From Microcystis aeruginosa NIES-2549 (lineage in GTDB: Bacteria; Cyanobacteriota; Cyanobacteriia; Cyanobacteriales; Microcystaceae), in assembly GCF_000981785.2 (NCBI RefSeq), contig NZ_CP011304.1, positions 1,290,001 to 1,322,000 on the forward strand: a DNA stretch of 32,000 nt, read 5' to 3'. Below, in pieces: positions 3 through 6,034 of this stretch; positions within the stretch are counted from its first letter, which is position 1, and every line of letters starts with the position of its first letter. The notes beneath the pieces were generated by a model that was given only the letters and a program-made list of their open reading frames with translations, was not told the DNA's origin and ran no database searches. The translations under genes and the position numbers were made by a program.

Positions 3-560
3 TTTCCCTATCTAGACATCTTTTTTGCGGGAACATCGCCCCCCCCGTCAATTTTACAGGCCGATCGAGCTAAAACTAATTCGATCGAGTTTTTTACCTT
101 TTCTAAGTCCTATAATATGGGCGGTTTTCGCATCGGTTTCGCCATTGGCAACCCGCAGTTAATTATGGCTTTGCGACAGATTAAAGCCATGGTTGATTTT
201 AATCAGTATTTGGGCATCCTTAACGGTGCGATCGCTGCTTTAACCGGTAATCAAGATTCGGTCAAGGAAACCGTCGCTATCTTCCAAAAACGTCGGGATG
301 TGTTTATTAATGCCCTAAATCGCATCGGTTGGCCGGTTGCCACTCCGGCCGCCACTATGTACGTTTGGGCGAAAATTCCCCCCAGTTGGCCGGGTAATTC
401 CGTCGATTTTTGTCGGCAATTGGTGGCCCAAACCGGTGTCGCTGTTTCCCCGGGTTCCGGTTTTGGCAAGGGTGGCGAGGGTTATGTGCGTTTTGCCTTA
501 GTTCACGATCCCGATATTCTAGAGGCTGCCGTGGAGAAAATTGGGGCTTTTTTGGGATAA
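3..560 (+). CDS. PLP-dependent aminotransferase (class I/II fold), 3' portion; the 5' end is upstream of the window
   Basis: The frame of track ORF 117..560 stays open back to base 3. My translation is ..FAGTSPPPSILQADRAKTNSIEFFTFSKSYNMGGFRIGF.. This gives the SxSK...G.R PLP-lysine region typical of fold-type I aminotransferases, so ATG 117 is internal. Confidence 0.85.
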   Translation, partial: FPYLDIFFAGTSPPPSILQADRAKTNSIEFFTFSKSYNMGGFRIGFAIGNPQLIMALRQIKAMVDFNQYLGILNGAIAALTGNQDSVKETVAIFQKRRDVFINALNRIGWPVATPAATMYVWAKIPPSWPGNSVDFCRQLVAQTGVAVSPGSGFGKGGEGYVRFALVHDPDILEAAVEKIGAFLG

Positions 561-729
561 AACCGATATTCTCAGCAGTAGTTATGCTGCAATCGATAAC
601 TTTCGCCTTGTTGCTGCTGATATTCCGGGTGATATTGGTAATGTGTCCACTCCCGAACCTTCTAGTATTATCGGACTAGGCATACTAGATGGTGGTTTAG
701 TGGTGCGTCGCCTCGCTAAACGTCGTTAA
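541..729 (+). pseudogene. 3' remnant of a PEP-CTERM protein gene; only the sorting-signal end survives
   Basis: ..AAIDNFRLVAADIPGDIGNVSTPEPSSIIGLGILDGGLVVRRLAKRR shows a PEP motif, a hydrophobic span and a basic tail. Its last ~45 nt plus the following ~185 nt (687..915) are near-identical to 3791..4018. There is no signal peptide or protein body, and the ORF start overlaps the aminotransferase stop. Confidence 0.5.
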
Positions 730-794
730 TCGCGCTTGGGGTGGGGGGATGAGCCAAAATTTTGCCAATTCGCCACCCTTTGCGGTTAAAAGCT

Positions 795-1013
795 TTAATT
801 GTGCTGCTGTCTTTGTAATTGCTCGATAGTTGCGGGGGATAAATCGGTAAATCGGGCGATTTCTGGGATAGGAAAACCAGCAGATAGCATTTTTAGGGCA
901 ATTTGTCGAGCTTTTTCTTCTTTACCCGCTTGCAATCCTTTTTGTAGTCCCTTTTCCTCGCCTTCCTCTCTGCCTTCCTCTAAAATATCTTGATAGATGA
1001 CGGATTCTCTCAT
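795..1013 (-). CDS. Free-standing copy (orphan A, 72 aa) of the Rpn-like C-terminal module: E/K/G-rich linker plus helix-turn-helix-like ..ARQIALKMLSAGFPIPEIARFTDLSP..
   Basis: Track ORF. ATG (rc of 1011..1013) lies 7 nt downstream of GGAG (rc of 1021..1024). The same ~40-nt linker+SD is found inside genes 1036..1827 and 2091..2870. Confidence 0.6.
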   Translation of the reverse strand: MRESVIYQDILEEGREEGEEKGLQKGLQAGKEEKARQIALKMLSAGFPIPEIARFTDLSPATIEQLQRQQHN

Positions 1014-1035
1014 AATGTCACTCCGAAGGATTTTT

Positions 1036-1239
1036 TTAATCGTCTCTCGATTGTAATTCCTCGATAGTTGCGGGGGATAAATCGGTAAATCGGGCGATTT
1101 CTGGGATAGAAAAGCCAGCAGATAGCATTTTTAGGGCAATTTGTCGAGCTTTTTCTTCTTTACCCGCTTGCAAGCCTTTTTTTAGTCCTTTTTCCTCGCC
1201 TTCCTCTAAAATATCTTGATAGATGACGGATTCTCTCAT
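1036..1239 (-). CDS. Putative nested in-frame small ORF (67 aa) equal to the C-terminal module of copy 1
   Basis: Internal ATG (rc 1237..1239) lies 7 nt downstream of GGAG (rc 1247..1250). The identical context precedes the free-standing orphan modules. Confidence 0.3.
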   Translation of the reverse strand: MRESVIYQDILEEGEEKGLKKGLQAGKEEKARQIALKMLSAGFSIPEIARFTDLSPATIEELQSRDD

Positions 1240-1827
1240 AATGTCACTCCGAAGGATTTTTTTAATCGTCTCTCGATTTAATACTAACCCGGCGAGAATA
1301 CTGGTAGCGGCAGCGAGATTGCTTTGCACCTGTTTTTCGGGGATAGTTTCTAAAGAACGGGACACCTGACTTAACACCTGTTCGGGGTCATCGGTATTGC
1401 TGAGGATGGCAAAGGGTAATAAACCGGGATGATGAAAAAATTGTGGTGTATTTTCTTCCCAAAGACGGATGACTTGAAAGGAATGAAAGGTTTCCCCCAG
1501 ACGGAAAGTATTTTCTTGCACTAGGGGGGAATCACTGCGTCGCAGATAAATTACCACTTGACGCATTTGTTTTTGGGGATGACGACGATAGACGCGAATG
1601 CGATAATCGAGCATTCGGAAGGGAATTTTGGAGTCGGGGTCGGTTTGAAACTCGGTATGGAGAATCAATTCCTCTGACTGCAAAAAAATCAGGGAATCGG
1701 CACGAATGGGGTCTAATTGTAATTCCGTCGGGTCGAGGACGGTTAAGGGGAGGGGAGAACCCAATAACCAAGTGGCTAGATCATCGGAGAAGTTTTCGGC
1801 GATAAATTTACAAATATTATCAAACAT
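1036..1827 (-). CDS. Rpn-family (YhgA/Transposase_31-like, PD-(D/E)XK) putative recombination-promoting nuclease, copy 1
   Basis: 263 aa from ATG 1827, equivalent to the start of copy 2. The track's extra 21 aa up to 1890 overlap orphan B and have no counterpart in copy 2. It carries the nuclease-core-like ..RADSLIFLQSEELILHTEFQTD.. and a C-terminal HTH-like module. Confidence 0.8.
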   Translation of the reverse strand: MFDNICKFIAENFSDDLATWLLGSPLPLTVLDPTELQLDPIRADSLIFLQSEELILHTEFQTDPDSKIPFRMLDYRIRVYRRHPQKQMRQVVIYLRRSDSPLVQENTFRLGETFHSFQVIRLWEENTPQFFHHPGLLPFAILSNTDDPEQVLSQVSRSLETIPEKQVQSNLAAATSILAGLVLNRETIKKILRSDIMRESVIYQDILEEGEEKGLKKGLQAGKEEKARQIALKMLSAGFSIPEIARFTDLSPATIEELQSRDD

Positions 1828-2068
1828 CGTGAGCGTTTTGTCTTTGTAATTCCTCGATAGTTGCGGGGGATAAATCGGTAAATCGGGCAATTTCTGGGAT
1901 AGAAAAGCCAGCAGATAGCATTTTTAGGGCAATTTGTCGGGCTTTTTCTTCTTTACCTTCTTGTCGTCCTTCTTGCAGTCCTTCTTGTCGTCCTTCTTGT
2001 CGTCCTTTTTCCTCGCCTTCCTCTCTGCCTTCCTCTAAAATATCTTGATAGATGACGGATTCTCTCAT
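1820..2068 (-). CDS. Free-standing copy (orphan B, 82 aa) of the Rpn-like C-terminal module with an expanded (R/L)QEG linker
   Basis: Track ORF. ATG (rc 2066..2068) is preceded by GGAG (rc 2076..2079). Its stop overlaps the ATG of copy 1 by 8 nt. Confidence 0.6.
   Translation of the reverse strand: MRESVIYQDILEEGREEGEEKGRQEGRQEGLQEGRQEGKEEKARQIALKMLSAGFSIPEIARFTDLSPATIEELQRQNAHDV
1956..2003 (-). repeat. 4 x 12-nt tandem repeat (ccttcttgtcgt / ccttcttgcagt) encoding (R/L)QEG x4 inside orphan B
   Basis: Read directly: 1956..1967, 1968..1979, 1980..1991, 1992..2003. Confidence 0.9.
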
Positions 2069-2090
2069 AATGTCACTCCGAAGAATATTT

Positions 2091-2282
2091 TTAATCGTCT
2101 CTCGATTGTAATTCCTCGATCGCGTCGGGGGATAAATCGGTAAATCGGGCGATTTCTGGGATAGAAAAGCCAGCAGATAGCATTTTCAGGGCAATTTGTC
2201 GAGCTTTTTCTTCTTTACCTTTTTGTAGTCCCTTTTCCTCGCCTTCCTCTAAAATATCTTGATAGATGACGGATTCTCTCAT
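2091..2282 (-). CDS. Putative nested in-frame small ORF (63 aa) equal to the C-terminal module of copy 2
   Basis: Internal ATG (rc 2280..2282) is preceded by GGAG (rc 2290..2293). Confidence 0.3.
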   Translation of the reverse strand: MRESVIYQDILEEGEEKGLQKGKEEKARQIALKMLSAGFSIPEIARFTDLSPDAIEELQSRDD

Positions 2283-2870
2283 AATGTCACTCCGAAGGAT
2301 TTTTTTAATCGTCTCTCGATTTAATACTAACCCGGCGAGAATACTGGTAGCGGCAGCGAGATTGCTTTGCACCTGTTTTTCGGGGATAGTTTCTAAAGAA
2401 CGGGACACCTGACTTAACACCTGTTCGGGGTCATCGGTATTGCTGAGGATGGCAAAGGGTAATAAACCGGGATGATGAAAAAATTGTGGTGTATTTTCTT
2501 CCCAAAGACGGATGACTTGAAAGGAATGAAAGGTTTCCCCCAGACGGAAAGTATTTTCTTGCACTAGGGGGGAATCACTGCGTCGCAGATAAATTACCAC
2601 TTGACGCATTTGTTTTTGGGGATGACGACGATAGACGCGAATGCGATAATCGAGCATTCGGAAGGGAATTTTGGAGTCGGGGTCGGTTTGAAACTCGGTA
2701 TGGAGAATCAATTCCTCTGACTGCAAAAAAATCAGGGAATCGGCACGAATGGGGTCTAATTGTAATTCCGTCGGGTCGAGGACGGTTAAGGGGAGGGGAG
2801 AACCCAATAACCAAGTGGCTAGATCATCGGAGAAGTTTTCGGCGATAAATTTACAAATATTATCAAACAT
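2091..2870 (-). CDS. Rpn-family (YhgA/Transposase_31-like, PD-(D/E)XK) putative recombination-promoting nuclease, copy 2
   Basis: 259-aa track ORF. The N-terminal ~205 aa are identical to copy 1. It differs only in the C-terminal module (GLQKGKEEK vs GLKKGLQAGKEEK; SPDAIE vs SPATIE). Confidence 0.85.
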   Translation of the reverse strand: MFDNICKFIAENFSDDLATWLLGSPLPLTVLDPTELQLDPIRADSLIFLQSEELILHTEFQTDPDSKIPFRMLDYRIRVYRRHPQKQMRQVVIYLRRSDSPLVQENTFRLGETFHSFQVIRLWEENTPQFFHHPGLLPFAILSNTDDPEQVLSQVSRSLETIPEKQVQSNLAAATSILAGLVLNRETIKKILRSDIMRESVIYQDILEEGEEKGLQKGKEEKARQIALKMLSAGFSIPEIARFTDLSPDAIEELQSRDD

Positions 2871-3053
2871 TGTCAGGGATTACTTTCCGTTTCTCCTAGG
2901 ATACCCTCGGTCGCCGGTGTTGACATCCTGTATTCGCCGTAACTGTTGCCGAAGAGAATCGTAGCGCAGAATACATTATAGACAAAATTCAACTTTAATT
3001 ATGGACTAATTGTATAAATATCGGCAAATTTGTCACATATTCCCAGAAATTTC

Positions 3054-3083
3054 TTGACAATTGCTAGAGGAAGGGAGTAGATT
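3054..3083 (+). promoter_or_regulatory. Candidate sigma70-type promoter for the PEP-CTERM gene
   Basis: TTGACA at 3054..3059, an 18-nt spacer, TAGATT at 3078..3083, about 27 nt upstream of ATG 3111. Based on sequence pattern only. Confidence 0.3.
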
Positions 3084-3110
3084 ACAATCACATCAATTTT
3101 ATGAAGCTTT

Positions 3111-3833
3111 ATGTCATTAGAAAAACTTATCAACCATGGGGGGGGGGAGAAGCATAGCTTATCAAAGGCTCTGCTCAAATCCTTTTCCCTAGCCACGGTT
3201 TTTACCACTACCCTTGTGCTGAGTTCGGTATCTTCCGCCGAAGCTTTCACTACTTTCACTAATCGCACCGCTTGGCAAGCTGCCGTCGATGCCATCGCTG
3301 GCAGTGTCACCACCACCGATACTTTTACCAACAACATCGCCTCTGCTCAAACAATAACACTGGATTCGGGCATCGTTTCGGCGAATTCCTTTCCACCCGC
3401 AGTTGCGTATGGGGATAATAGCGTTGGTGGAGGACTTTTCAACAATGCCACTGATGGAGATGCGAGTGGTGCTTCCGCAACTATCACTTGGACTTTTCCC
3501 TCACCTGTGTTTGCCTTCGGAGCGGATTTTAAAGGTACTGCGGCTGGCGGGCTAAACCTAACGGGAAATTTCGATGGTACAGGAAACCAAACTCTGCTTG
3601 TGAATGACAGTATCGGCGGACCAGACGGCTTTCTGGGCATTATTGGTAACGCAAACTTTAGCTCGATCGTCTTTGGGAATAATACAACTTTCTTCGATTC
3701 CTTCCAGATCGATAGCGCTTCTTTTGCCTCTGTTGCCTCTGTTCCCGTCGCAGTTCCTGAACCTGGTATGATCACAGGATTGGTGTTCTTAGGTGGTGGT
3801 TTAGTGGTGCGTCGCCTCGCTAAACGTCGTTAA
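3111..3833 (+). CDS. PEP-CTERM sorting-domain secreted protein
   Basis: Signal-peptide-like KALLKSFSLATVFTTTLVLSSVSSAEA, a G/T/N/S/A/F-rich body, and a C-terminal VPEPGMITGLVFLGGGLVVRRLAKRR (PEP motif, TM span, basic tail). Confidence 0.85.
   Translation: MSLEKLINHGGGEKHSLSKALLKSFSLATVFTTTLVLSSVSSAEAFTTFTNRTAWQAAVDAIAGSVTTTDTFTNNIASAQTITLDSGIVSANSFPPAVAYGDNSVGGGLFNNATDGDASGASATITWTFPSPVFAFGADFKGTAAGGLNLTGNFDGTGNQTLLVNDSIGGPDGFLGIIGNANFSSIVFGNNTTFFDSFQIDSASFASVASVPVAVPEPGMITGLVFLGGGLVVRRLAKRR
3138..3147 (+). repeat. Homopolymeric G10 tract inside codons 10-13 of the PEP-CTERM gene
   Basis: Counted directly: ccatGGGGGGGGGGagaag. Confidence 0.9.
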
Positions 3834-3841
3834 TCGCGCTT

Positions 3842-3890
3842 GGGGTGGGGAGATGAGCCAAATTTTGCCAATTCCCCACCCTTTGCAGTT
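3842..3890 (+). terminator. Candidate terminator hairpin after the PEP-CTERM gene
   Basis: GGGTGGGGA (3843..3851) pairs perfectly with TCCCCACCC (3873..3881) and is followed by TTTGCAGTT. The loop is long (21 nt), so this is tentative. Confidence 0.35.
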
Positions 3891-3897
3891 AAAAGCT

Positions 3898-4098
3898 TTA
3901 ATTGCGCTGCTGTCTTTGTAATTGCTCGATTGCGTCGGGGGATAAATCGGTAAATCGGGCAATTTCTGGGATAGAAAAGCCAGCAGATAGCATTTTTAGG
4001 GCAATTTGTCGAGCTTTTTCCTCTTTGCCTTCCTCTTTGCCTTCCTCTAAAGCTTCTTGATAGACTTTAGTTTCCCTTAAATCACTTAAACTAAACAT
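3898..4098 (-). CDS. Free-standing C-terminal module (orphan C, 66 aa from ATG 4098): MFSLSDLRETKVYQEALEEGKEEGKEEKARQIALKMLSAGFSIPEIARFTDLSPDAIEQLQRQQRN
   Basis: ATG (rc 4096..4098) lies 9 nt downstream of AAGGAG (rc 4108..4113). The frame is open upstream to 4216 but without an ATG. The track ORF 3898..4131 starts at a TTG that is a Leu codon in the homologous gene. Confidence 0.5.
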   Translation of the reverse strand: MFSLSDLRETKVYQEALEEGKEEGKEEKARQIALKMLSAGFSIPEIARFTDLSPDAIEQLQRQQRN

Positions 4099-4216
4099 TT
4101 TTTCAATCTCCTTACGGTTTAATTTGGGCAATTTATAAATGAGAATTGTCTCGATTAATTCCAGAATGTCCTCTCTTTTTAAAGACTCCTGAAATTGTTG
4201 CTTAAATTGTTGAATC
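4040..4216 (-). repeat. 177-bp segment about 97% identical to 4406..4582 inside gene 4231..5052
   Basis: My manual alignment gives a constant offset of 366, 5 mismatches and no indels. Homology stops exactly at the ..EALEEG | C-terminal-module boundary. Confidence 0.9.
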
Positions 4217-4230
4217 TAAGGCTTTTTTCT

Positions 4231-4464
4231 TTAATTTAACCATTGCCGCAAATCTTCTAAATCCGAAAACCCCAACAACGCAAGAGCTAAATTATCCAGT
4301 TGATTAGGATTTAATTGTTTAATTTTTTGTTCTACCTTTAAAGGAATAGAACCGAGTTTTAAGTTTAGCTGACGCAAAATTAGGCTTTTTTTAGCGGATA
4401 ATTCTCCTTCCTCCAAAGCTTCTTGATAGACTTTAGTTTCTCTTAAATCACTTAAACTAAACAT
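4231..4464 (-). CDS. Putative nested in-frame small ORF (77 aa) equal to the C-terminal module of gene 4231..5052
   Basis: Internal ATG (rc 4462..4464) lies 9 nt downstream of a perfect AAGGAG (rc 4474..4479). Confidence 0.3.
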   Translation of the reverse strand: MFSLSDLRETKVYQEALEEGELSAKKSLILRQLNLKLGSIPLKVEQKIKQLNPNQLDNLALALLGFSDLEDLRQWLN

Positions 4465-5052
4465 TTTTTCAATCTCCTTACGGTTTAATTTGGGCAATTT
4501 ATAAATGAGAATTGTCTCGATTAATTCCAGAATGTCCTCTCTTTTTAAAGACTCCTGAAATTGTTGTCTAACTTGTTGAATCAGTTCTTTTCCTTGAGCT
4601 AAGGTATTTTGTTCCGATTCCACAATTAATTGTAACACTTTTACCCCCAGAGAATCCCCCTCATCTAACTGATTCAGATAATAACAGTTAACCCGGCCTG
4701 ACTCAAAGAATTCTTGATAACGAGATTTGGGACTATTTTCAATTTCCCGATGGGGATAAATGATCACCCCTTGCCAATTGTTCTTACTCTCACTTTGATG
4801 AAAATAGAGAAATATTTCACTAAAAAAGCGCGAGTAAAACCGTTCATCTTTTTGAAATTGTACCTCAACAAAGTAAATCGGATCATTGAGGTTATCGGGA
4901 AGAAAAACCCCATCTAAACGAAAAGCGAGTTGTTTAACTTCTAGGGAGGAAAATTGATAATGATTGACGGTTTCTGGGGGAAGATTGAGCAAATCAAAGA
5001 AACTTTCAGGAAAAGTCTCAAAGAGACGATAGAAAATACTGTCCGTTTTCAC
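4231..5052 (-). CDS. Rpn-family PD-(D/E)XK putative nuclease paralogue (MKTDSIFYRLF.. type) with a DUF4351-like C-terminus
   Basis: 273-aa track ORF with ..RLDGVFLPDNLNDPIYFVEVQFQKD.. as a nuclease-core-like motif. The C-terminus ..LILRQLNLKLGSIPLKVEQKIKQLNPNQLDNLALALLGFSDLEDLRQWLN resembles DUF4351. Confidence 0.8.
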   Translation of the reverse strand: MKTDSIFYRLFETFPESFFDLLNLPPETVNHYQFSSLEVKQLAFRLDGVFLPDNLNDPIYFVEVQFQKDERFYSRFFSEIFLYFHQSESKNNWQGVIIYPHREIENSPKSRYQEFFESGRVNCYYLNQLDEGDSLGVKVLQLIVESEQNTLAQGKELIQQVRQQFQESLKREDILELIETILIYKLPKLNRKEIEKMFSLSDLRETKVYQEALEEGELSAKKSLILRQLNLKLGSIPLKVEQKIKQLNPNQLDNLALALLGFSDLEDLRQWLN

Positions 5053-5099
5053 TCAATTTTGTCCCTCATTGACTTGTGGTACTTGTTCAATTTCTCAGT

Positions 5100-5203
5100 C
5101 TAAAGCTTGGGGATAGGAAAGCCAGCAGATAGCATTTTTAGGGCAATTTGTCGAGATTTCTCTTCTTTGCCCTTTTCCTCTCCTTTCTCTAAAATGTCTC
5201 GAT
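5100..5203 (-). pseudogene. Truncated remnant of the HTH-like module, abutting the dapB stop
   Basis: My translation is ..DILEKGEEKGKEEKSRQIALKMLSAGFPIPKL*. It lacks both a start and the distal half of the module. Confidence 0.6.
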
Positions 5204-6034
5204 TTAGAGGATTTTTTCTAAACCGTAAACGAGGGATTGCAGCTGAGTAACTTTGCGGATAGAAAGGAGAACCCCCGGCATATAACAGGAGCGATCGCTG
5301 GTATCGTGACGAAGGGTATAGATTTCTCCAGGAGAACCGAAAATGACTTCCTGGTGAGCAATTAAACCGGGTAAACGCACGCTATGAATACGGATGTTCT
5401 CAGCAGTTAAACCGCCTCTAGCACCGGGGATGGTTTCTTTTTCGGAAACTTGGGCAGGATTAAAGGTTTTACCTAATTCGGCCAGTAATTCGGCGGTTTT
5501 AATGGCTGTGCCACTGGGTGCGTCTGCTTTTTGATTGTGATGCAGTTCGATAATTTCCACATGATCAAAGTAGCGGGATGCTTGCACGGCAGCCTGTTGT
5601 AGTAAAACCATGCCAATGGAAAAATTGGGGATAACTAAACAGCCAGTGCTGGCTTTTTCGGCAAATTCGGCTAAATCTTGCAGTTGTGCCGCCGATAATC
5701 CCGTAGTTCCCACCACGGGACGCACTCCATAGGCGATCGCACTGCGGGTATTGTCATAAACACCGTCGGGATGGGTAAAATCCACCATTACCCCCTGCAC
5801 TTTTTCCTGAGTTGCCAGGACTAAAACACTCTGTAAATCGTCGAGAATCGGCACTTCTAGGGGTTCACAACCGGCCACTTCCCCCACATCCTGACCTCGA
5901 AAAGCTGGATTTCGATCGACTGCACCCACTAAGATCATATCGTCGGCACGAGCAACGGCTTTAATAACTTCCCGTCCCATTTTGCCGGCTGCACCGTTGA
6001 CAACTACGGGAATCGGGCCTCTATTTTCGGTCAT
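5204..6034 (-). CDS. dapB: 4-hydroxy-tetrahydrodipicolinate reductase
   Basis: The N-terminus [14 protein letters not shown] is a Rossmann motif, followed by ..[15 protein letters not shown].. (the DapB signature). AAGGAG lies upstream of the ATG. Confidence 0.95.

Follow-up and report, generated by a model that had tools for sequence, protein, structure and literature searches.

The rpn genes of Escherichia coli specify a full-length protein, RpnL, which on its own is a toxic endonuclease, and a small protein, RpnS, which is translated from an internal start of the same gene, as was also found for a Clostridioides difficile gene, and which binds and inhibits RpnL (Zhong et al. 2023, PNAS, PMC10400941). 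The internal site of rpnA consists of AAGGAG, 6 nt and the ATG of M244, and it was this site that Zhong et al. mutated to abolish RpnA_S (PMC10400941); the E. coli rpn genes are also reported to hold an internal promoter that gives a short transcript for the small protein. Specificity is set by repeat number, one added repeat in RpnC_S being enough to abolish neutralisation (PMC10400941). RpnS-type proteins are in addition encoded by separate downstream genes, the RpnSs genes ypaA (rpnESs) and rpnCSs, which are annotated as DUF4351 and derive each from its own upstream gene, and rpn arrays arise by tandem direct duplication, from which an rpnSs copy can disappear when it is deleted or becomes fused to an N-terminal domain (PMC10400941). 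Here we analysed an array of Rpn-family genes in a 32,000-nucleotide stretch of Microcystis aeruginosa NIES-2549 (the window; contig NZ_CP011304.1), in which three long genes (gene1, gene2 and gene3) carry an in-frame internal Shine-Dalgarno (SD) sequence and ATG at the start of a C-terminal module, and three short open reading frames (ORFs; S1, S2 and S3) encode such modules as free-standing copies. We read the locus as a plastic array of Rpn gene-within-gene toxin/antitoxin (TA) units whose RpnSs-type copies come from tandem duplication, and we put the probability of this reading at roughly three in four.

Every structural feature of the Microcystis locus fits the description given by Zhong et al. 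The likeness to the L and S proteins of E. coli RpnA-E and RpnP2 extends to the NCBIfam model TIGR01784, the D/D/E/Q catalytic residues, an in-frame internal SD and ATG where a small C-terminal module of three helices begins, homology of that module to RpnA_S (structure 7th0), and variable four-residue repeats, which in RpnS proteins start 8-20 residues after the Met (PMC10400941) and in Microcystis 13-20 residues past the initiating Met. In rpnA the SD is AAGGAG, 6 nt from the ATG; in Microcystis it is AAGGAG, 9 nt away, or GGAG, 7 nt away. Unlike the E. coli genes, the Microcystis locus belongs to a cyanobacterial lineage, has a subfamily with RpnA_S-like tails and a DUF2887+DUF4351 subfamily side by side, lies outside a defence island, and yielded no convincing internal promoter in a consensus scan.

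The free-standing modules resemble the RpnSs genes (ypaA/rpnESs by rpnE, rpnCSs by rpnC, and stand-alone DUF4351 genes) in that a module copy derived from a gene's own C-terminus lies directly downstream of it, within arrays formed by tandem direct duplication and altered by loss or fusion events. The original prediction, made from the letters of this stretch, gave the 2023 account of the nested small protein accurately, but the part of it that might have seemed new, antitoxin copies encoded as separate downstream genes, is not supported as a novelty, RpnSs genes (ypaA, rpnCSs; DUF4351) having been described in the same paper (PMC10400941). What sets the Microcystis copies apart from the known RpnSs genes is that three of them lie within 4.3 kb, that S3 is a chimera of two module types, that the junctions could be resolved as a 3n+1 unit in which the ribosome-binding site (RBS) is carried along, and that no copy matches the repeat number of the adjacent gene. 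Classical type II TA operons share with the array a small helical protein, resembling a helix-turn-helix (HTH) domain, that is presumed to inhibit a larger toxic enzyme encoded alongside. The type II antitoxin, however, is a distinct protein with no relation to the toxin, has its own gene and is usually encoded upstream and co-transcribed, whereas the inhibitor candidate in Microcystis is the putative toxin's own C-terminal domain or a duplicate of it, encoded by small ORFs inside or downstream of the toxin gene and not by a separate upstream gene; of the other type II traits, a labile antitoxin and autoregulation, the array gives no sign. In the collection of papers that we searched for Rpn, DUF2887 and DUF4351 proteins in cyanobacteria, nothing turned up beyond the E. 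coli papers of 2017 and 2023 and a commentary of 2023.

Family membership, active site and the C-terminal module

All three long genes are members of the Rpn (YhgA-like) family of PD-(D/E)XK nucleases and keep the catalytic residues of RpnA. TIGR01784, the NCBIfam model of the family, scored 112.5 bits for gene1, 114.3 for gene2 and 72.2 for gene3 against a cutoff of 52.1, in line with the family assignment first proposed from the letters, and the best database matches carry the annotation 'Rpn family recombination-promoting nuclease'. A check against Pfam Transposase_31, suggested at the same time, remained below threshold for gene1 and gene2 (16.2 vs 21), while gene3 matched DUF2887 (5.6e-78, 262 bits) together with DUF4351 (1.3e-16). 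Gene3, which had been taken for an unrelated-looking paralogue, is thus the DUF2887+DUF4351 branch of the same TIGR01784 family. In RpnA, the substitutions D11A, D63A, E82A and Q84K abolish all phenotypes (Kingston et al. 2017, PMC5350276). When the sequences were aligned to RpnA of E. coli, to which overall identity is at most 26%, D11, D63, E82 and Q84 fell at D3, D44, E59 and Q61 of gene2, and among 32 homologues D3, D44 and E59 were invariant and Q61 nearly so; in the gene3 family, D, D, E-x-Q and R are invariant at the equivalent places.

In gene1 and gene2 the C-terminal module is a homologue of RpnA_S, and in gene3 it is a DUF4351 domain. A profile built from 20 modules matched the RpnA_S crystal structure 7th0 at E=1.4e-5, its best natural-protein match, and an AlphaFold2 (AF2) model of gene2 (predicted local distance difference test, pLDDT, 84.9) placed Met197 just ahead of a long helix (201-232) followed by helices 237-244 and 248-258, a three-helix layout that is the architecture described for RpnA_S. 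The S ORFs match the C-terminal end of TIGR01784 (S2 at E=2.5e-10), and HTH Pfam matches were weak and all below their cutoffs. Following the motif 'YQxxLEEG', the module carries four-residue repeats, (xxxG)n, as in REEG, EEKG, RQEG or LQKG, giving the form EEG-(xxxG)n. The number of repeats, n, is 2 in gene2, 6 in S2, 3 in gene1, 4 in S1, 0 in gene3 and 1 in S3, so that all six modules of the window differ, and across Microcystis and other cyanobacteria it ranges from 0 to 8 or more and varies widely between strains.

The annotation of these genes is heterogeneous. In RefSeq the long genes go under the name 'Rpn family recombination-promoting nuclease/putative transposase', and the name given to S1 and S2 is 'helix-turn-helix domain-containing protein'. 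Many cyanobacterial family members and stand-alone modules are annotated 'flagellar assembly protein H', which is likely a systematic mis-annotation and probably stems from weak FliH model matches of the Glu/Lys/Gly-rich repeats.

Selection on the internal ribosome-binding site and ATG

The coordinates and spacers of the three internal SD and ATG pairs, and the products of 67, 63 and 77 aa that would follow from them, were all found in the sequence as the original prediction had given them (Table 1). All three genes do have such an SD and ATG, but they amount to only two independent cases, the bodies of gene1 and gene2 being identical (196/196 aa by tblastn; DNA 99%). The further claim that the same contexts head the free-standing modules holds as well. 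The ATG of S1 (1013) is preceded by the same 25 nt as the internal ATGs of gene1 and gene2, and the ATG of S3 (4098) by the same 25 nt as the internal ATG of gene3; in S2, the 25 nt upstream of ATG 2068 show two A-run differences from gene1 and gene2 with the GGAG and the spacer unchanged.

In gene1 and gene2, the ATG at the module boundary is the sole SD-bearing one among four internal in-frame ATGs, with a predicted anti-SD duplex of -6.7 kcal/mol compared to +0.4 to +2.0 kcal/mol for the others; in gene3 it is the sole internal in-frame ATG, with a duplex of -8.2 kcal/mol. The SD of dapB in the window is comparable (-8.2 kcal/mol), which indicates that SD-led initiation is in use in the NIES-2549 genome. 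We then compared 160 related loci, comprising 80 genome loci (76 genes of the gene1/gene2 family, family A) and 80 metagenome loci (68 genes of the gene3 family, family B); the first 80 loci contained no DUF2887 paralogues, and metagenome loci were used instead. Given the relatedness of the sequences compared, these counts do not represent independent events. In 96% of 150 nested modules the module ATG was preceded by a duplex of at least -6 kcal/mol in strength, a level attained by 0% of the primary starts in family A, by 24% of those in family B and by 0-3% of the other in-frame ATGs.

Codon usage around this ATG points in the same direction. In family A, Met197 was invariant in 100/100 full-length homologues (at least 54% identity), and the R193 codon was AGG or CGG in 73 of 76 genes (96%), as against 7-71% NGG at other invariant Arg columns and 26% for Arg codons overall. 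In family B, Met197 was likewise invariant (111/111 homologues), and residue 192 may be K, E, Q or R, yet its codon was NAG or NGG in 66 of the 68 genes, and in 32 of the 34 that were left once redundancy had been cut at 85% identity. The E193 codon of this family was GAG in 91% of genes (85% in the non-redundant set), compared to 28-30% GAG for Glu codons overall and 15-23% at the neighbouring E195, in genomes that prefer GAA (72%). The retention of (A/G)GGAG across codons 192 and 193 therefore reflects selection on nucleotides and not on the protein alone; as judged by the control columns, synonymous sites are largely randomised at 55-65% protein identity. Collectively, the internal RBS and ATG are under selection in both subfamilies, beyond what chance would give, and translation of cyanobacterial Rpn genes probably also initiates at the module ATG. 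The core idea of the original prediction, that the genes are nested toxin/antitoxin units of the Rpn type whose internal start is conserved, is accordingly well supported by family membership, module homology and codon, SD and Met conservation in both subfamilies.

A separate possibility, programmed frameshifting at an A7 run upstream of the internal ATG, was rejected, as the run is not conserved in homologues. The many Microcystis homologues of about 200 aa, which might have been body-only variants arising from a frameshift within this run, proved to be N-terminally truncated gene calls that retain the module, and that reading was rejected too.

Duplication anatomy and layout of the array

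In S1 and S2, the 3' module of the gene upstream has been duplicated in tandem along with its RBS. The linker found ahead of the internal ATG recurs as the 37 nt before the S1 and S2 ATGs (tcgagagacgattaaaaa...ggagtgacatt). In gene2 the linker motif lies internally at 2319..2302 and is repeated at 2105..2088, giving a duplicated unit of 214 nt, and in gene1 it lies at 1276..1259 and is repeated at 1050..1033, giving a unit of 226 nt; both lengths are 3n+1, which puts the second linker out of frame with the upstream gene and produces a ...QSRDD tail and a TAA stop (gene2: 2093..2091), and the copy can for the same reason be expressed only from its own SD and ATG. Many Microcystis homologues terminate in QSRDD, so this junction is old and widespread. 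Other full-length homologues end in ...RQNA(H/R)DV, the S2-type end, with a stop that overlaps the ATG of the next rpn gene, and the ...RQNAHDV end with this overlap is a signature of whole-gene tandem duplication. In the window, the S2 stop overlaps the gene1 start in the same way (ATGTTTGA, 1827..1820, minus strand); this overlap marks a whole-gene tandem duplication and could also permit translational coupling. The gene1 start is the ATG at 1827, as in homologues, and the TTG at 1890 is a mechanical ORF call.

S3 has a composite origin. The 118 nt ahead of its ATG are gene3 sequence, with 4040-4216 97% identical to 4406-4582, while its 3' part and flank (3860-4029) are 93% identical to 757-926 in the S1 region. 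S3 thus consists of a gene3-type leader and first helix followed by a gene1-type RpnA_S-like tail, with the switch located within the repeat tract. Mosaics of this kind were also seen elsewhere: Microcystis Rpn modules combine two leader types, MRESVIYQDILEEG and MFSLSDLRETKVYQEALEEG, with three tail types, namely RpnA_S-like, DUF4351 and ELSAKLNSIPRL...LGLSVEQIAQALDL, with crossovers in the repeat tract, as in related loci L082 (2318), L083 (1219), L091 (540), L088 and L089 and in proteins P0139-P0143. Such leader and tail combinations indicate that exchanges occur in Microcystis.

Free-standing modules are a recurrent element of the related loci, making up 27 of 177 scored modules in the 160 loci; in 13 cases an intact copy is found directly downstream of a nested module, at 199-595 nt. 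An intact ORF is retained by most of the 27, and 75-82% carry a strong SD. The pooled ratio of nonsynonymous to synonymous differences per site (pN/pS) between nested and downstream copies was 0.33, from about 60 codons per pair and with the constrained nested branch included, which is weak evidence that free copies are kept as coding sequence. In nested/downstream pairs of other cyanobacteria, repeat number differed in 11 or 12 of 13, where one pair (locus L132) counts as equal although its copies differ by a four-residue indel.

The array spans 795-5219 on the minus strand of the window and has dapB (5204..6034) on one side and, on the other, a plus-strand gene for an aminotransferase (117..560). 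Its order along the minus strand is the fragment at 5103..5219, gene3, S3, a PEP-CTERM-like gene on the opposite strand, gene2, S2, gene1 and S1 (Table 1), and the gene and module content of the locus varies between Microcystis strains.

Table 1. Features of the rpn array in the window (positions count from the first nucleotide of the stretch)
Feature	Position	Strand	Description
gene1	1036..1827	-	full-length Rpn-family nuclease, 263 aa, MYAER_1251
gene2	2091..2870	-	full-length Rpn-family nuclease, RpnL-type, 259 aa, MYAER_1253 (exact-sequence look-up)
gene3	4231..5052	-	Rpn-family nuclease, DUF2887+DUF4351 branch, 273 aa, GTG start
Nested RpnS-type ORF of gene1	1036..1239	-	67 aa, 3 repeats
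Nested RpnS-type ORF of gene2	2091..2282	-	63 aa, 2 repeats
Nested RpnS-type ORF of gene3	4231..4464	-	77 aa, DUF4351 tail, 0 repeats
Internal SD GGAG of gene1	1247..1250	-	7-nt spacer to in-frame ATG 1239
Internal SD GGAG of gene2	2290..2293	-	codons R193 and S194; 7-nt spacer to in-frame ATG 2282
Internal SD AAGGAG of gene3	4474..4479	-	codons K192 and E193; 9-nt spacer to in-frame ATG 4464
S1	795..1013	-	free-standing RpnSs-type module, 72 aa, 4 repeats, MYAER_1250
S2	1820..2068	-	free-standing RpnSs-type module, 82 aa, 6 repeats
S3	3898..4098	-	free-standing chimeric module, 66 aa, 1 repeat
37-nt linker copy with SD	1014..1050	-	duplication junction gene1/S1
37-nt linker copy with SD	2069..2105	-	duplication junction gene2/S2
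Decayed module fragment	5103..5219	-	no start codon; abuts dapB stop
PEP-CTERM-like gene	3111..3833	+	opposite strand, between S3 and gene2

Several smaller observations concern the DNA in and around the array. The fragment at its far end, matched by the gene2 module at 1.8e-13 (tblastn, 5219..5103), begins inside the last dapB codons, ends in ...ILEKGEEKGKEEKSRQIALKMLSAGFPIPKL* and is a relic of a further module copy. ORFs starting MPDLPIYPP... (1036-1890 and 3801-3962, minus strand) are out-of-frame reads of module DNA (the ...FTDLSP... region) and not genes, and the mechanical extension of gene1 is a product of this out-of-frame reading. The PEP-CTERM-like gene encodes a secreted protein that has no Pfam match and a C-terminus of ...GLVVRRLAKRR, and a run of ten G at 3138-3147 in its first codons (HGGGE) could allow slipped-strand on/off switching. 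The 3' tail of this gene and the adjacent S-module flank are duplicated at 84-93% identity (541-762, plus strand; 651-926 vs 3755-4029), and the duplication of the tail left, immediately after the aminotransferase gene, a remnant ORF (541..729) that consists of the tail only; from this duplication it follows that the array has been rearranged by recombination between module copies.

Working model, competing explanations and significance

In the model that we consider best supported, full-length RpnL would be a DNA endonuclease that is toxic alone, RpnS would be translated separately, from the internal SD and ATG that open the three-helix module, and RpnS would bind and inhibit RpnL through the long first helix bearing the variable four-residue repeats, each of these steps being drawn from homology to E. 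coli. S1, S2 and S3 arose when the 3' module was duplicated in tandem along with the 37-118 nt of coding sequence upstream of it, RBS included, and unequal recombination in the 12-nt repeats then altered repeat numbers and, in S3, swapped tails. We infer internal translation, toxicity, neutralisation and a part in phage defence by homology to the E. coli proteins.

A number of results weigh against this model. The locus is not in a defence island, its neighbours being housekeeping genes (aminotransferase, dapB, methyltransferase, glycosyltransferase, asparaginase and RsfS); association with defence islands is a tendency of the Rpn family and not a strict criterion. No PADLOC model matches gene1, gene2 or gene3, and PADLOC returned only a weak 'putative invertase' match to S1 and S2. 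A consensus scan, which takes in part of the range of cyanobacterial promoters, gave a single weak -35/-10 match inside gene3 (4706..4678) and no match in gene1 or gene2 upstream of the internal ATG. A Foldseek search of the PDB with the full-length AF2 model of gene2 gave no match at E<=0.001 (best 7.8e-3); its weak matches include the PD-(D/E)XK nucleases XisH, EcoO109I, N.BspD6I and NucS/EndoMS and the Cap4 and Can2 nuclease domains, which is suggestive and was not used as proof. Some copies are debris, as shown by the fragment at 5103-5219 and the decayed free copies of loci L042, L080 and L087, and the invariant Met and the conserved R-S or x-E residues could partly mirror constraint at the protein level.

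The last two points, together with the differences in the locus between strains, would be expected if the internal Met and the purine-rich codons were kept for the protein alone, no small protein were made and the downstream ORFs were recombination debris. R193, S194, E193 and Met197 are indeed conserved as amino acids, but the synonymous choice is itself selected (AGG/CGG 96% in family A, and GAG 85% in family B in GAA-preferring genomes), codon 192 changes its amino acid while the (A/G)G nucleotides stay, E195 next door has no GAG bias, and primary starts and other in-frame ATGs lack a comparable SD. Most of the 27 free copies are moreover intact and carry a strong SD, and production of the small protein is documented for the homologues from E. 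coli and C. difficile (PMC10400941), so that we regard an explanation by protein constraint and debris as very unlikely. Barely credible, in our view, is that the genes are mobile-element transposases with the HTH-like module as DNA-binding domain and that the array was built by transposition. Older annotations ('mobile element protein', 'putative transposase/invertase'), the sub-cutoff HTH matches and the strain-variable copy number can be cited for it; the copies, however, lie head-to-tail with junctions inside coding sequence at microhomology, there are no flanking terminal inverted repeats or target-site duplications, and Zhong et al. argue against a transposase function on the same grounds and note that no PD-(D/E)XK protein is known as an autonomous transposase (PMC10400941).

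The role of S1, S2 and S3 is a question apart, and the answers to it are compatible with the nested L/S mechanism. The original prediction had considered that the free copies might stand midway between nested and classical two-gene TA organisation or might buffer several nuclease paralogues. Given the repeat numbers in the window (n = 2, 6, 3, 4, 0, 1) and the loss of neutralisation by a one-repeat mismatch in E. coli RpnC, the copies would be non-cognate to their neighbours, and buffering of neighbouring paralogues is disfavoured. The mismatch fits neutral slippage after release from co-variation, service to other paralogues, or a cassette reservoir. It is unlikely, on our estimate, that S1, S2 and S3 are functional in a capacity other than back-up antitoxins of their neighbours, either as a reservoir of alternative C-terminal cassettes that recombination between stretches of shared EEG-(xxxG)n repeat DNA re-fuses to nuclease bodies, creating new L/S specificities, or by neutralising repeat-matched paralogues elsewhere. 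The mismatches in the window and in 11-12 of the 13 pairs elsewhere speak for such a role, as does the one-repeat rule of RpnC (PMC10400941), as do the chimeras found free-standing or fused to bodies (S3, P0139, L088, L082_2318 and L091), the retention of SD, ATG and intact ORF in most free copies with a pooled pN/pS of 0.33, and the fusion of an N-terminal domain with an rpnSs region noted by Zhong et al. (PMC10400941). Neutral slippage after duplication, however, also yields mismatch, a copy being no longer forced to co-vary with the toxin, and the matching rule is known for RpnC only; the exchange is read from mosaics, and the pN/pS value, which takes in the constrained nested branch, was obtained on about 60 codons per pair. 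The more specific proposal that the free modules form a maintained library of mismatched specificity cassettes, shuffled by recombination in the 12-nt repeat tract, we hold to be unlikely.

The Microcystis locus leaves the known picture of the Rpn system unchanged and extends the Rpn gene-within-gene architecture from E. coli, and a C. difficile gene in heterologous expression, to bloom-forming cyanobacteria, in which Rpn paralogues are abundant and annotated as transposase, 'flagellar assembly protein H' or hypothetical protein. The selection of (A/G)GGAG codons before an invariant Met provides cheap and strong support for a functional internal start in two cyanobacterial subfamilies, and the repeat mismatch between nested and downstream copies bears on the purpose of the stand-alone genes. 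If the cassette proposal were true, it would account for nested and downstream copies almost never sharing repeat number, and it would mean a cassette-type diversification of Rpn toxin/antitoxin specificity in Microcystis, with leaders, repeat numbers and tails exchanged with nuclease bodies.

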